A stretch of 64,000 bases of DNA from Parcubacteria group bacterium (GTDB lineage Bacteria; Patescibacteriota; Minisyncoccia; Moranbacterales; UBA11712). The notes beneath the pieces were generated by a model. The model ran no database searches. It was not told the DNA's origin and saw only the letters and a program-made list of their open reading frames with translations. The first letter of the stretch is position 1; the number at the start of each line of letters is the position of its first letter. The position numbers and the translations under genes are program-made. The DNA is taken from the NCBI GenBank assembly GCA_041659685.1, contig JBAZXV010000001.1, positions 178,771-242,770 on the forward strand, read 5' to 3'. Positions 5,074-60,963 of this stretch are shown piece by piece.

Positions 5074-6095
<1,022 letters not shown>

Positions 6096-8777: not shown

Positions 8778-11276
8778 CTATAGCAAATCATCAAGTCCCA
8801 CAGCGCAATCATCTCCTTTTCTTATGTCTCCGCCGATTAGCCTTTTGACTATCTTGTCGCCGATTTTATCCTGGATAAAACGATCGACGGATCTGGCTCC
8901 GAATTTGCGGTCAAAGCCCCTGTCGACAACATAGCTTGCGATTTCCGGATCGAACTGGATGTTAATGTTTTCTTCCTTTTTTAGGCGGGCGGCATATTTT
9001 TCGAGCTGTAGTTCGGTCACTTCCATTATTTCTTGTTTCAAAAGAGGATGGAAGAAAATAACTCCATCGAAACGATTGAGAAACTCCGGCCTGAAAATCC
9101 CCTCCTTAATAATATGATCAACCAGTTTCCCCTGAATCTCATCGGGGTTCATCCGGGCATCAACCGCTTCTTTTATGAAATCCGATCCGGCATTGGAGGT
9201 TGCGATAATTATCAAATTTCTGAAATTCACTTTTTTTCCGAAGGCGTCCGTAAGCCATCCTTCGTCAAGAATCTGCAAAAATAAGTTAAGGACATCCGGA
9301 TGAGCTTTTTCTATTTCATCAAGAAGCAGCAATGAGTATGGATTTTCCTTGACCTTATTGGTCATTTGTCCGCTCATATTTATTTCAACCGACCCGAGCA
9401 ATCGGTCAAGCGCTTCGGCTTTTTGATATTCGCTCATATCCAGGCGAATCATCCGGTTTTCGTCTCCGAAATAAGCTTCCGCCAGAGCTTTCGCTGATTC
9501 CGTTTTTCCGACGCCAGTAGGGCCCAAAAAAAGGAAACTGCCCATAGGCTTGGCGGCATTTGCCATGCCGACTCGCGCCCGCCGCATCGTTTCTGCAATT
9601 TGCTTTATGGCAAAATTCTGGCCGATTATCCGCTGATGGAGGATATCTTCAAGACTCAAGAGTTTTTCCTTTTCACCTTCCTGCATCTCGCCCAAGGGAA
9701 CTTTGAATTTTTTTGAGACCACTTCGGCAACTGTTTGCGGACTGATATGCTTTTCAGACGGTTTTTGCGACCAAAAAAGAAAAACTTCCTCCATAAGATC
9801 GAGTGCCTTTTCCGGAAAAGGAGAATCCGTAATGTATCGGTCCGAAAGCTTTACGATCTCCCTCAGAGCCTGGTAAGTGAATACAACCCTTTGCTCTTCA
9901 ATTTTTTTAAGGCCGAAAAGAAGCACTTCCATCGTCTGGTCGGCGCCTATTTCCTCAAGCTGAACTTTATCAAAATATTTGGTTATCCCCTCTTTTTTTT
10001 CTATATTTTCATGGAACTCGGCGGGAGTCGCCAGGCCGATTACTTGAAAAGTGGGAATGCTTAGGAATTCTCCAAGCACGTTTGAAATATCCTCGCCGGG
10101 ATTTTTTTGATTTGAAAGAAAGTGACGGCCGATATTATCAATAACCAAAATTATGTTTCCGGCATACGCCGCTTCAAAAAACATCGACCTCAAAATATCC
10201 TCGATTTGGTTCTGGTCGCTAAGGCCGGAGCACATTTCCCCCATATTGATTTCAAGAACTCTTTTTCCGATCAAATAAGGATTTGATTCCCCTTTTCTGA
10301 TTTTCCTCGCCAAAGAATGGACCAGAGTCCGCTTTCCGACGCCGGCTTCGCCGACAATAAAGGCGCTGTTCTGGCTGGGTCGGGTCAAAATCAGCTCCAA
10401 AAGTTCCATTTCCTGCGCCCGTCCGATTAATTTCGCGTTTTTATATTCCGTCAGATCGCCTTCTGAGAGGTCTGCCGCATACCTGTCCAGATGAACCGTG
10501 TAAGCGTAAGTCCAATACCGGCCAATAGGCAAAGTATTATAGAGGTTTTCTTTGATCCAAAACTTTTTCCTTTTTTCATTTTCCAGCCAGCGCATTGTCT
10601 CCCAATTGATAATTTTTTCAAATTCTTCCGTTGTGACATCGCATTCCCTCAGAATTTCTTTCAACGCATCCGGATCCGGCAAAGAACTTCGGTTGCCTCC
10701 CTCAAAGTCTTTTCCGATTCGCTGCCAGATCCTTGAAAACCATTTTTGCGAAATCAATTTTTCCAAACTGCCTGTCGTATTTTTTTTGGCGGCAGAAAAT
10801 GACCTCCAGGAAACAAGAGTAATGACAACCGCAACGGCGAAGGAAAAACCTTCAATAACAGCGGGAAAATACGACTTTGCGGGAACGGAATAAAAAAGCC
10901 CGACCCCTAAAAATAAAAAGAGCGGCAGGAAAAGCCACATAACCAAAATCATTAATCCCAAAACAAGAGTCGAAATTTCCGCCAACACTCCCAGGAGTAT
11001 GATAAAAGTTCTTACCGTCGCTCCTAAAAATCGGGTAATGAGATTCTCAAAGGCAGACTGCGCCAAAAGAAGCGGATGAAATCCCAGCCGCGAAACATGG
11101 GAAATATCTCTTCTCCAGGATGAAAACAATGTTCGAAAATGCCTGGAAACGCCGAAATACCACCAAAAAAATCCCAGATAATTTTTCCAAATATCCAAAA
11201 GTTTTCTTGTTCCTTGGAGATAATGCCAAGTGAGAAAATTCATTTTTATTTTTTTGATATATAAATATTTTAGCAT
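8778..11276 (-). CDS. ClpA/ClpB-family double AAA+ ATPase fused to an N-terminal multi-pass membrane domain
   Basis: D1 has GEAGVGKRTLV and D2 has the canonical GPTGVGKTESAKALAE, plus NLFLQILDEGWLTDAFGKKVNFRNLIIIATSNAGS (sensor region). The first about 170 aa hold roughly four hydrophobic helices. Confidence 0.75.
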   Translation of the reverse strand: MLKYLYIKKIKMNFLTWHYLQGTRKLLDIWKNYLGFFWWYFGVSRHFRTLFSSWRRDISHVSRLGFHPLLLAQSAFENLITRFLGATVRTFIILLGVLAEISTLVLGLMILVMWLFLPLFLFLGVGLFYSVPAKSYFPAVIEGFSFAVAVVITLVSWRSFSAAKKNTTGSLEKLISQKWFSRIWQRIGKDFEGGNRSSLPDPDALKEILRECDVTTEEFEKIINWETMRWLENEKRKKFWIKENLYNTLPIGRYWTYAYTVHLDRYAADLSEGDLTEYKNAKLIGRAQEMELLELILTRPSQNSAFIVGEAGVGKRTLVHSLARKIRKGESNPYLIGKRVLEINMGEMCSGLSDQNQIEDILRSMFFEAAYAGNIILVIDNIGRHFLSNQKNPGEDISNVLGEFLSIPTFQVIGLATPAEFHENIEKKEGITKYFDKVQLEEIGADQTMEVLLFGLKKIEEQRVVFTYQALREIVKLSDRYITDSPFPEKALDLMEEVFLFWSQKPSEKHISPQTVAEVVSKKFKVPLGEMQEGEKEKLLSLEDILHQRIIGQNFAIKQIAETMRRARVGMANAAKPMGSFLFLGPTGVGKTESAKALAEAYFGDENRMIRLDMSEYQKAEALDRLLGSVEINMSGQMTNKVKENPYSLLLLDEIEKAHPDVLNLFLQILDEGWLTDAFGKKVNFRNLIIIATSNAGSDFIKEAVDARMNPDEIQGKLVDHIIKEGIFRPEFLNRFDGVIFFHPLLKQEIMEVTELQLEKYAARLKKEENINIQFDPEIASYVVDRGFDRKFGARSVDRFIQDKIGDKIVKRLIGGDIRKGDDCAVGLDDLL

Positions 11277-11382
11277 AAATCAAGGGAAATAAAAACAACC
11301 CGGCAGACTGGTTGCTAGATCATTATACGATTAATTAATTTTACTAATCAGTTTCTATGCATATTGCTTAATTATCAATTTT

Positions 11383-58395: not shown

Positions 58396-60963
58396 TCAGT
58401 CCTGATCAGGTCCCGCTTGTCTGACATCCTTTTTTTCAGGAACCGCAACAGGATTCTGTGGCTTTTCCAGAAACTGGGGCGGAGCGGACGACTCTGCCTT
58501 GGGTGTTTCCGGAGTTATTGGTTGTTCCGGCTTAACTTCTGCCGGAGTTTGAGGCGGCATAGCAGGCGGTTCCGCCGGCTTGGCCTCTGGTTTTTCCGGA
58601 ATTGATGGAATAATTATTTTTCCGTCCGGAACCTCAGGCAGAACAGGCTGTTCCACCTTGGGCGCATCCGGAACCGGCGTCGGAGCCTGGGCAGGTTGCT
58701 CAGGCTTGTCCGGAGTGATTGGTTGCTCCGGCTTGGTTTCTTGCGGAGCCGGGATTGGTAGCGCCGGAACCTTGATCGGCGTTTCCGGCTTGACTGCCGG
58801 ACACCGCTCCCTCAACTTCTTTTTACGTTTCGGCGGTTTTTTTACTTTTACCGGCGGAGCTTTTTCAACTGCGGGAGGACAGATAATTTTCGGCTCAGCC
58901 GGAATTATCGGTGCTGGAGGTAAAACCGCAGGAACAATCGGCTCAATTTCCGGCGTGTCCCAAGGAACTTCTTTGGTCCCGCATTCCACCATCGCGCCCT
59001 GGATGGTCCAAAATACGCGATAAAAATCGACAGAATCCAGATAGTAGTTTCTTTTCCCAAAATATCGGCCGTAGGAGAGGTATACTCCCCCAACTTCGAC
59101 CTGCACTTTGCCTCCGCCGCCCTTGGGGCCATGGCGGAAACGCAGAAAGGCCGGGCCCGCCGATATTTTGAACAGGTCATCGCACGGCGATTGATACAGG
59201 ACCGGCATAATACCGGCATGGAAAAACCCGTCCGTCTCCCAGAGCAGGAAGGCCTTCGCTCCCGGGAGCAGCTTGCCATATTTTCCGCTCTTCACCGGCT
59301 TCCACCAAAATTCCGTGGCGGCGTCAACCGTTGCATAGCGGCGGGACATCCGATAGTTAAAATCCCCTTTTTCCCAGCGTCGGCCCGCAAGAAGGCCAAT
59401 CGTCGTATCCGTCCCGCCCCAATCATGGCGGGTGATAATCTCCGGCCAAATGCCGAATGAACGGCTACAGCCTGATCCGGAGAATTCGGACGGGTGAACT
59501 TGATACTCATACCACCCGAACTTTGCCGCAGGTCCGACTCCCAAAAATACGTTGGGCGCCAATTCTGCTTCGAACGGCCGCAAAGCGATATTATGCCATG
59601 CAAACCGTCCCGAGAGATTCGGCTCACGGCTGATTCCACCTCCAATCGGTATTTCTACCCGTTTCGGATCGACCCACCAACGAATGCGCTGAGGAAGATC
59701 GATGTAGTCATTGAAGGTTTGACCTTGGCCTTTGACATCGGCAACAAACTGCCGATAGGGAATCTCACCGCCGATGTTGGCATTGTTTTCCCGGACATAC
59801 GACTGTCCATAACTTTTTTCGCTCTTCGCCGGGTTTGGATAGGCGCCGACTTTTTCATCTTTCCGGAAGGATTGCCAGAAAGCAAAATCCTTCTCGAAAA
59901 GCTCTACGCCATTTGTCTCGGTAGAGAGGCAAGGCGTGTTGTGATTGCGCAGAACGGTGGATGTAAATAATGCTGATCCAGCGCTCATTGCCATCCCAAT
60001 CGGCTCAGGACTGATTGTCAGCCCCCCATCATCGGCAAAGCGAACATAGCCACGGCGCCGGTCGGGTTTTTTGCAGGCCTCGACTAATTCGCCACGATCT
60101 GCCGCATAGCGGATCCCGTCCATCGGGACATAATACTTATTAAGGCCGGCAGCCCGAATAACTCCATCGAGCTGGCCTTTGTTGATGAGGCTCGTTCTCT
60201 GGAGACTATCAAGGCTCGTGCCATAGGTCTCGGCAACCAGAGCCATATACTCAGGATCTTTTTCTTCATACATTCCGCCCTGAAGTTTGGCATACTTGGT
60301 GCCTTCCAACCCCCAAACAACCAACTCACCACGTTTGTCTCCGCCAATGGCATTGTTGAAAAAACGGTCGCCACTGACAATTTTCCAATCGGAGGCAGAA
60401 CCAGTGAGTTCGGAGTTGAAATAGACTACGACCGGAAGCTTGCCATTCTTGTCGCTGCCGGACGGCAGAATAAAACCGTCCTCAATCCGACCAGAGCCGG
60501 AATTGACGGCCACCGCCTTCATGGTCTTTCCCTTAGCAAATTTAAGCGCAGGTGTGGGGATAAAACCTCTCACGGCAGTGACTTTTTTGGAGTCTTGCGG
60601 AGGTTTTTTGGTTGACCATGAATCACGAGGGGTGCAGAAGGGGGATTTCCATAATTTCCCATCTTCCCTATCCCCGTTCTCCGGGTTTTCCCACTTGTTG
60701 GGTTTGCGGGCCGTGTAAAACTGCCCGCTCTCCTGGTTCAGCCTTTCCTGGTAGATTTGGCCGTCACGAGAATTCTTCCACTCGCGGACCACACCGGGAT
60801 CGGCTTTTTCGGCGGAAGCGGCTTCTGAAACCTCTCCTCCGCTGCCGGAGCACTTATACCATCCCGGTTCGGAACCGGGAATTGGGTCTGCAGCTTTTGC
60901 TTGGCCGCTGGCAAAAACCAGCGAAAGGCCGAGCAGAGCAGCGATAAAAGACTTTCTGACCAT
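58396..60963 (-). CDS. Large secreted protein (855 aa) with a C-terminal Pro-rich repeat region
   Basis: Signal peptide MVRKSFIAALLGLSLVFASGQAKA and PExPxxP-type low complexity in the last about 150 aa. GC-rich. Confidence 0.5.
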   Translation of the reverse strand: MVRKSFIAALLGLSLVFASGQAKAADPIPGSEPGWYKCSGSGGEVSEAASAEKADPGVVREWKNSRDGQIYQERLNQESGQFYTARKPNKWENPENGDREDGKLWKSPFCTPRDSWSTKKPPQDSKKVTAVRGFIPTPALKFAKGKTMKAVAVNSGSGRIEDGFILPSGSDKNGKLPVVVYFNSELTGSASDWKIVSGDRFFNNAIGGDKRGELVVWGLEGTKYAKLQGGMYEEKDPEYMALVAETYGTSLDSLQRTSLINKGQLDGVIRAAGLNKYYVPMDGIRYAADRGELVEACKKPDRRRGYVRFADDGGLTISPEPIGMAMSAGSALFTSTVLRNHNTPCLSTETNGVELFEKDFAFWQSFRKDEKVGAYPNPAKSEKSYGQSYVRENNANIGGEIPYRQFVADVKGQGQTFNDYIDLPQRIRWWVDPKRVEIPIGGGISREPNLSGRFAWHNIALRPFEAELAPNVFLGVGPAAKFGWYEYQVHPSEFSGSGCSRSFGIWPEIITRHDWGGTDTTIGLLAGRRWEKGDFNYRMSRRYATVDAATEFWWKPVKSGKYGKLLPGAKAFLLWETDGFFHAGIMPVLYQSPCDDLFKISAGPAFLRFRHGPKGGGGKVQVEVGGVYLSYGRYFGKRNYYLDSVDFYRVFWTIQGAMVECGTKEVPWDTPEIEPIVPAVLPPAPIIPAEPKIICPPAVEKAPPVKVKKPPKRKKKLRERCPAVKPETPIKVPALPIPAPQETKPEQPITPDKPEQPAQAPTPVPDAPKVEQPVLPEVPDGKIIIPSIPEKPEAKPAEPPAMPPQTPAEVKPEQPITPETPKAESSAPPQFLEKPQNPVAVPEKKDVRQAGPDQD

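Follow-up and report, generated by a model that had tools for sequence, protein, structure and literature searches.

A membrane-anchored Clp/Hsp100-type double AAA+ protein of Patescibacteria with a degenerate first module and no aromatic pore loops

Introduction

Clp/Hsp100 proteins are the textbook case of hand-over-hand polypeptide threading by way of aromatic pore loops. Here we analyze a relative encoded at 8778-11276 on the minus strand of a 64,000-nucleotide stretch of DNA (hereafter the window) from an uncultured, ultra-small bacterium of the Parcubacteria group (assembly GCA_041659685.1, contig JBAZXV010000001.1, positions 178,771 to 242,770), and we assign it to a large Clp/Hsp100-derived clade of double AAA+ integral membrane proteins that was seen here only in the Candidate Phyla Radiation (CPR)/Patescibacteria. 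A preliminary description, made from the letters of the window, had taken the protein for a membrane-tethered unfoldase or disaggregase with a possibly degenerate first ring, and had called the architecture not well described. On the last point our searches concur: in the full-text literature that we searched we found no account of a CPR clade of Hsp100 proteins that are anchored in the membrane and lack pore loops, although other literature may contain one. The fold and the ancestry of the protein are familiar; its architecture and likely mechanism are not.

Several described systems share some of these properties. ClpC and ClpA have homologous first and second AAA+ modules (D1 and D2; 32-39% identity to the window protein in Foldseek alignments), an AAA_2-type D2 with a C-terminal D2-small domain, and a Clp_N-like domain that relatives of the window protein have kept; ClpA also shares the short D1-D2 junction. 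The window protein differs from both in its integral membrane N-terminus, its degenerate D1 sites, the deletion of GYVG, and the absence of an IGF/VGF loop and of a Pfam Clp_N domain, and from ClpC in having no M-domain. ClpB and Hsp104 resemble it in that the stretch after sensor 1 carries no ClpP-docking loop, but the window protein has no coiled-coil M-domain and hence no Hsp70 coupling site, and it has no pore-loop tyrosines, a dead D1, and a membrane anchor. FtsH, Msp1/ATAD1, and Bcs1 likewise hold an AAA ring at the membrane by an N-terminal transmembrane anchor; these, however, are classical AAA proteins with a single tier and belong to another clade, FtsH and Msp1 both carry aromatic pore loops, and FtsH has in addition an M41 protease domain that the window protein lacks. 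In NSF and p97/Cdc48 one tier is mainly an assembly scaffold while the other works, yet they too belong to another AAA clade, are soluble, and have an active tier that keeps its aromatic pore loops and threads substrate.

The Torsins are Clp/Hsp100 relatives without aromatic pore loops; they are membrane-associated, and their cofactors are transmembrane proteins with a degenerate AAA+ fold (PMC5425593). Torsin with its cofactors LAP1/LULL1 thus resembles the window protein in having a Clp/Hsp100-D2-like motor without aromatic pore loops and an N-terminal hydrophobic membrane association; the counterpart of the degenerate cofactor would here be D1, in cis, with the membrane partner fused or encoded next door. 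Torsin, by contrast, has a single D2-like module without an arginine finger of its own and resides in the lumen of the endoplasmic reticulum, whereas the window protein has two tiers, carries R735 and GAR, and is bacterial and, by its predicted topology, cytoplasmic. We would regard Torsin as the nearest functional analogue, the resemblance being one of function and architecture, not of orthology.

Identity and family membership

The gene is one uninterrupted open reading frame (ORF) of 832 residues with its stop codon at 8778-8780; it encodes a hydrophobic N-terminus followed by two AAA+ modules, just as first described, and the D1 and D2 sequences GEAGVGKRT and GPTGVGKTE are both present as read then. 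An identical 832-residue protein is held at NCBI (MFA5925472.1), labelled ‘ATP-dependent Clp protease ATP-binding subunit [Parcubacteria group bacterium]’. Translation probably begins at the ATG of M12 (11241-11243), at 11243 instead of 11276, because the majority of the homologues begin at this position (‘MNF/MDF..WHY’) in the alignment of full-length sequences; the upstream sequence was considered as well. A single-protein scan of the GTDB genomes gave three proteins of Candidatus Moraniibacteriota as the closest relatives (70% identity), and also a canonical ClpC from Bacilli that we then used as a motif control. The family counts given below come from an alignment of 110 CPR homologues with 33-74% identity to the window protein. 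About 60 homologues, with lengths of some 815-850 residues, span 97-99% of it at identities down to 35%.

From the 110-sequence alignment AlphaFold2 (AF2) yields a confident model (pLDDT 89, pTM 0.82), for which Foldseek places structures of ClpC and ClpB at the top of its matches (E-values from 1e-45 to 1e-38). A phmmer comparison with B. subtilis ClpC (PDB 3j3t and others) yields an E-value of about 1e-113, with D1 aligning to ClpC residues 159-444. Pfam recognizes AAA_2 at residues 576-737 (E 3e-49), ClpB_D2-small at 745-825 (E 2.5e-18), and a partial AAA_lid_9 at 463-507, D1 itself drawing generic P-loop matches only. Clp_N (PF02861) is not matched in the whole protein or in residues 1-272, so that the absence of Clp_N and the presence of AAA_2, both anticipated in the preliminary description, are confirmed. 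With its two tandem AAA+ modules and an AAA_2-type D2 followed by ClpB_D2-small, the protein has the architecture of class I Clp/Hsp100 proteins, and by homology we place it there.

Within that class it fits none of the named families. The best NCBIfam models are those of ClpB, ClpA, ClpK, ClpV, and ClpG, and all of them score far under their curated cut-offs: 456.6 bits against 1232.1 for the highest-scoring model, TIGR03346 (ClpB); 413 against 993 for TIGR02639 (ClpA); 304 against 1350 for PRK11034; and 376.6 against 884.95 for TIGR03345 (ClpV). The type VI secretion context that would go with ClpV is missing from the gene's neighborhood, where the neighbors are housekeeping genes, and Pfam finds no Peptidase_M41 in the protein. 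By the features that define these groups it would be classed neither as ClpA/ClpC, nor as ClpB, ClpV, or FtsH, and it is not a Torsin. What it does have are the traits that recur in the 110 homologues: a hydrophobic N-terminus, a D1 Walker A of the form GxxGxG[KR]x[ST], a deleted D2 pore loop, the motif KKFW..ENL..IG..W.YGYT, and an intact D2. The databases label the window protein ‘ClpC’ or ‘AAA family ATPase’. The label ‘ATP-dependent Clp protease ATP-binding subunit ClpC’ is misleading, as it implies a ClpP-dependent proteolysis that the sequence does not support.

The first AAA+ module

All features of the gene lie on the minus strand. D1 covers residues 263-510 (9747-10490), as delimited by Pfam and the alignment with ClpC. 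Its Walker A remnant, GEAGVGKRT (residues 309-317; 10326-10352), stands where ClpC has GEPGVGKTA, with the canonical Thr replaced by Arg; GK[ST] is found in a single one of the 110 homologues, and the Walker A Lys itself has become Arg in 53 of them. The Walker B remnant (10128-10151) reads ILVIDNIG against ILFIDELH in ClpC, a change from DE to DN, and DE is kept in 35 homologues. At the arginine-finger position the protein has TKYFDK (9966-9983), the LERRFQ of ClpC aligning with ITKYFD, so that RR has become KY; no homologue retains RR. The equivalent of pore loop 1 (CSGLSDQNQIEDI, 10194-10232; ClpC counterpart AGTKYRGEFEDR) has no Tyr: GTKYRGEFE in ClpC corresponds to GLSDQNQIE, KYRG being replaced by SDQN, and the residues found here across the family are variable and polar.

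Where a functional nucleotide site would show GK[ST], hhhhDE, and arginine fingers, D1 thus has GKR, DN, and KY. Having lost its Walker A Thr and Walker B Glu, its two arginine fingers, and the Tyr of its pore loop, D1 is predicted to be a pseudo-ATPase and could not serve as a normal ATPase. The degenerate first ring that had been suspected from GKR is therefore real and further gone than GKR had indicated. The canonical Bacilli ClpC, run through the same script, shows GKT, KYRG, DE, RRF, GYVG, and VGF, that is, every canonical motif; hence the family counts are no artefact of the method.

The second AAA+ module

D2 together with the ClpB_D2-small domain occupies residues 511-832 (8781-9746). 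The Walker A sequence GPTGVGKTE (residues 585-593; 9498-9524) has a GVGKT core that is present in all 110 homologues, three of which read GSTGVGKTE, and the DE of the Walker B sequence LLLLDEIEKA (9303-9332, placed by the family alignment) is equally universal. Further on, FRPEFLNRFDG (9063-9095) holds the putative arginine finger R735, conserved at 90% or more within FLNRFD, and the sensor-2 sequence GAR (8892-8900) has an invariant G793 and R795; both were located in the alignment of homologues. The TSN, FRPEFLNRFD, and GAR elements of ClpC are all retained. D2 thus keeps Walker A, Walker B, sensor 1, a putative arginine finger, and sensor 2 throughout the family.

This conservation bears on whether the protein could be a decaying relic of ClpC, or a purely structural pseudo-enzyme without any ATP-dependent function, as the many missing canonical motifs and the reductive character of CPR genomes might suggest. 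We consider this very improbable: the catalytic motifs of D2 are invariant or nearly so in 110 sequences of only 33-74% overall identity, the gene is widespread and has housekeeping genes around it, and the AF2 model is confident throughout.

The aromatic pore-1 loop of D2 has not been kept. Where ClpC has LVGSPPGYVGYDEGGQLT, the window protein has the remnant LLGSVEINMSGQMT (9360-9401), aligned as LLGS----VEINMSGQMT; the deletion of four residues (four to seven in the relatives) takes out the GYVG motif, and in only five of the 110 homologues does the shortened loop contain an aromatic residue. With KYRG gone from D1 and GYVG from D2, neither tier of the window protein has an aromatic pore-1 loop.

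The docking sites of the known Clp systems are missing too. The tripeptide [ILVM]G[FL] that serves for ClpP docking does not occur in the TSNAG...FRPEF stretch (residues 693-732) of the window protein, nor in any of the 110 homologues, while the control ClpC has VGF at this position. Genes for ClpP, ClpX, or FtsH were not found by tblastn in the 64-kb window, which is weak evidence and says nothing about the whole genome. The ClpP partner or IGF/LGF loop that the preliminary description had proposed to look for thus did not turn up in the tripeptide count or in the window. The D1-D2 junction is short, with about 12 residues between ‘MEEV’ and ‘ISPQTV’ as against an M-domain of about 85 residues in ClpC, and the distance from PEKA to IGQ is 61-63 residues in 109 of the 110 homologues, which leaves no M-domain.

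The N-terminal membrane module

Hydrophobic N-terminal segments occur in all 110 homologues. The module opens with a conserved basic domain (residues 12-88; 11013-11243) that belongs to no Pfam family and carries the motif W17...T49-L-F-S-x-W54-[KR]-R-D...N78..R82..G85, in which W17, T49, W54, N78, R82, and G85 are invariant and TLFSPW[KR]RD is the motif sequence. It is strongly basic, with family means of 10.8 Lys and Arg against 3.8 Asp and Glu, for a net charge of +7. The hydrophobic membrane segments follow at residues 89-160 (10797-11012), as defined by hydropathy and AF2: a long helix at about 90-115, a short one at 117-130, and a second long one at 136-160. Kyte-Doolittle peaks lie at about residues 79-135 and 135-160. 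The AF2 model has helices at 14-40, 43-48, 68-115 (very long), 117-130 (short), and 136-164 (long), with the conserved loop at 49-67, and a separate model of residues 12-170 agrees with it (pLDDT 90). The flanking two hydrophobic helices are long enough to span the membrane, the middle one has 14-16 residues, and all are variable in sequence and without conserved polar lining residues. The membrane tether proposed earlier is borne out, and the N-terminal module is conserved in the family; the count of roughly four transmembrane helices was approximate, since there are two helices of membrane-spanning length and one short one, and residues 12-88 form a basic helical domain.

As the N-domain carries a net charge of +7 and the region past the last hydrophobic helix is also net positive, the positive-inside rule points to an N-in/C-in topology: a two-helix membrane hairpin, with the N-domain and the AAA+ modules both in the cytoplasm and the short helix on the far side. 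A three-pass topology with an extracellular N-domain was considered and rejected in view of this same charge and of the mere 14-16 residues of the middle helix.

A helical linker (residues 161-236; 10569-10796) connects the membrane segments to the rest. Compared by eye with the P0074, P0112, and L007 proteins, it looks like the final helices of a Clp_N-like domain that occurs in another group of homologues, here termed type B (WFSRIWQRIG..., LKEILRECDVTTEEFEKIINWE), a short Clp_N remnant being all that is recognizable. Just before D1 comes the family motif KKFW..ENL....IG..W.Y.YT (residues 237-262; 10491-10568), near-invariant in both N-terminal types (F239, W240, L245, W255, T260), absent from canonical ClpC, and ordered in the AF2 model (pLDDT 80-88). 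It might contact the membrane or a partner, or replace the lost loops.

A two-gene module

A word-index homology search with the N-terminal 164 residues gave no match, a limit of that method, as close full-length homologues exist. An exhaustive profile search with the N-domain, by contrast, gave 1424 proteins at E <= 0.001. Of the best 150 of these, the majority are shorter than 200 residues, and many fall in a tight class of 122-136 residues that consists of the N-domain, one long hydrophobic helix, and one short one. The named stand-alone proteins are annotated ‘hypothetical protein [Patescibacteria group bacterium]’. Pfam detected nothing significant in seven stand-alone proteins or in the N-terminal 272 residues of the window protein.

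In all five informative contexts (L007, L009/L010, L011/L012, L013/L014, and L015) the small gene lies directly upstream of a Clp-like gene of about 820-856 codons, the two overlapping by 14-26 nucleotides or standing 1-3 nucleotides apart. The Clp-like proteins encoded downstream have 30-42% identity to the window protein and the same degenerate D1, and their type B N-terminus consists of two transmembrane helices followed by a Clp_N-like domain. A third arrangement is seen in P0066 (Portnoybacteria), which combines a type A module, a Clp_N-like domain, D1, and D2. Because its N-terminal module is a separate upstream gene elsewhere in the CPR, the window gene represents a conserved pair of genes in fused form (a Rosetta-stone relationship), and the small membrane protein is either an obligate genomic partner of the Clp-like protein or fused to it. 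The preliminary description had treated the N-terminal module as part of one architecture; its conservation in the family upholds this, but the independent protein in other CPR genomes was not visible from the window.

That other CPR genomes encode the module by a gene of its own could also be taken to mean that a hydrophobic upstream ORF was wrongly joined to a soluble Clp gene by an error of assembly or gene calling. The chance of this is negligible: the frame is single and uninterrupted, the same fusion recurs in some 60 independent assemblies at 97-99% coverage, and a third hydrophobic helix and the linker are found specifically in the fused forms, not in the stand-alone partner. With these homologues and the identical NCBI deposit, the hydrophobic N-terminus is real and not a mis-called upstream ORF.

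Two of the loci have two extra small genes upstream of the stand-alone partner gene (5214-5567 and 5657-6001 in L007; 646-990 and 983-1327 in L009). They encode a two-transmembrane-segment protein of about 115 residues and a basic soluble protein of about 114 residues, with 33-45% identity between the two loci and in swapped order. Since neither the window nor the other loci have them, we rejected them as core parts of the module; they may be accessory components that are specific to certain lineages.

The window gene itself is flanked by genes for EF-Ts, S2, PSP1, and PheS and by two tRNA genes. Conservation of the neighborhood is limited to Moranbacteria-level synteny (amidohydrolase or deaminase, pheS/pheT, tsf, rpsB), and no secretion or transport genes are associated in the neighborhoods of five homologues.

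These observations also bear on another role: an ATP-driven gate or translocase for bulky, folded, or non-protein cargo such as lipid, in which a widened, loop-free channel would be aligned with a pore of 12-18 membrane helices. Bcs1 and the HSP101-EXP2 PTEX translocon are its analogues, Bcs1 showing that an AAA protein anchored in the membrane can move folded cargo. The loop-free channel does occur together with a conserved membrane module, the family was found, among named matches, only in CPR organisms, and these rely on imported building blocks. Against this, the hydrophobic helices are poorly conserved and without conserved polar lining residues, the stand-alone partner has just one long and one short hydrophobic helix, no secretion or transport genes accompany the gene, and the proposal is pure analogy. 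We hold such a role to be decidedly unlikely.

Proposed mode of action

The reading that we prefer, and consider rather probable, is a membrane-docked ring in which D1 would be a pseudo-ATPase scaffold and D2 the single motor, the whole acting as a non-threading, Torsin-like remodeller and not as a ClpP partner or a disaggregase. A Clp-type ring would dock beneath the cytoplasmic membrane and turn its D1 face to the bilayer; D1 would serve only for assembly and transmission, as NSF-D2 does, and D2 would be the sole motor. ATP hydrolysis would then drive conformational changes that are relayed to the membrane module or to a partner, in place of processive threading, since neither tier has substrate-gripping loops. 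Such a ring would remodel or switch a target embedded in the membrane, and would do so non-processively. The earlier wording ‘unfoldase or disaggregase’ is not upheld: GYVG is deleted from D2, the KYRG of D1 has given way to variable polar residues, there is neither a ClpP loop (0 of 110) nor an M-domain, and no ClpP gene was found in the 64-kb window. The protein is probably neither a ClpP-coupled unfoldase nor a DnaK-coupled disaggregase.

Some points weigh against our reading. A Clp_N-like domain, the part of other Clp proteins to which substrates or adaptors bind, is retained in the type B relatives, and the PS1 hairpin (DEGxLTD..G..V.F.N) is conserved as well, so that the substrate may be a protein and the channel may be used in some form. 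In the window protein, what is left of the D2 loop includes the hydrophobic residues V, I, and M, which might hold a chain weakly. D2 differs from Torsin in probably having its own arginine finger and in being one of two tiers. Conserved neighbor genes that would point to a target are absent from five neighborhoods of fused and type B homologues, and oligomeric state, ATPase activity, and topology are all deductions from sequence.

Several of these points would equally suit the model of the preliminary description, a membrane-tethered unfoldase, extractor, or disaggregase that is otherwise conventional. It would be a dislocase of the FtsH or Msp1 kind that has no protease and threads membrane or aggregated proteins by way of non-canonical pore residues, with D2 as its motor. 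As in FtsH and Msp1, the anchor would set the D1 entry face beside the bilayer, the catalytic motifs of D2 are intact, and D2-small is conserved along with PS1 and the Clp_N-like domain of the type B relatives; moreover, some AAA+ tiers, such as D1 of p97, touch substrate without aromatic pore residues. However, p97 and NSF have an aromatic paddle in at least one tier, and here it is in neither: both pore-1 loops are gone, that of D2 being shortened by 4-7 residues with a variable remainder, and there is no ClpP loop and no M-domain. A threading dislocase of this kind thus seems unlikely to us.

If the non-threading remodeller is correct, the Hsp100 scaffold can work by a mechanism other than threading, and the CPR clade would offer a bacterial, possibly more tractable model for the action of loop-less Clp relatives such as Torsin. 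The clade is large and conserved; it has kept the D2 motor, deleted the pore loops, let D1 die, dropped the known docking elements, and moved to the membrane with a dedicated small partner. Only tentatively would we go further and propose that the CPR turned a ClpC-like unfoldase into a new kind of two-component membrane machine, fused in the window gene and made up of a small conserved membrane protein and an anchored double ring with a pseudo-ATPase first tier and a loop-less motor, for non-threading remodelling or gating; it would be a bacterial counterpart of Torsin with its cofactor, or of Bcs1, and perhaps central to the envelope biology of such minimal, host-dependent cells. The family may in any case stand for unrecognized envelope or proteostasis biology in the CPR, given that a gene kept so widely in such small genomes is likely to be important.

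Other features of the window

A pair of repeats (11380-11399 and 11491-11510, minus strand) lies between the tRNA-Tyr gene (11506-11589) and the Clp-like gene. The repeat comprises the last bases of the tRNA-Tyr and the adjoining downstream sequence (cccacaatcaaacagggaaa), with the second copy, bearing one mismatch, about 111 nucleotides further downstream; a spurious ORF at 11355-11567 mirrors it as PSPPTI[KE]QGK twice. The pair might be a scar of integration at the tRNA, similar to an att site, or else a fragment of the tRNA 3' end. A gene at 11750-12469 (minus strand), which lies immediately upstream of the two tRNA genes and the Clp-like gene, encodes a 239-residue protein with an N-terminal hydrophobic segment and, by eye, a C-terminus resembling tetratricopeptide repeats, without a Pfam match; the Moranbacteria locus L001 also has a gene of 239 codons at this position, whereas more distant relatives do not.

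An 855-residue ORF without a Pfam family (58396-60963, minus strand) lies in the only GC-rich part of the window (GC fraction about 0.54 as against 0.43 elsewhere), in which Rfam finds no rRNA; this region is possibly foreign DNA or a fast-evolving surface protein. The PheS ORF (5142-6095, minus strand) has 317 residues against 340-379 in the syntenic loci (12068-13090 in L001), and its C-terminal end looks divergent by eye, perhaps as a result of a frameshift or of a different stop codon close to the 3' end of the gene.

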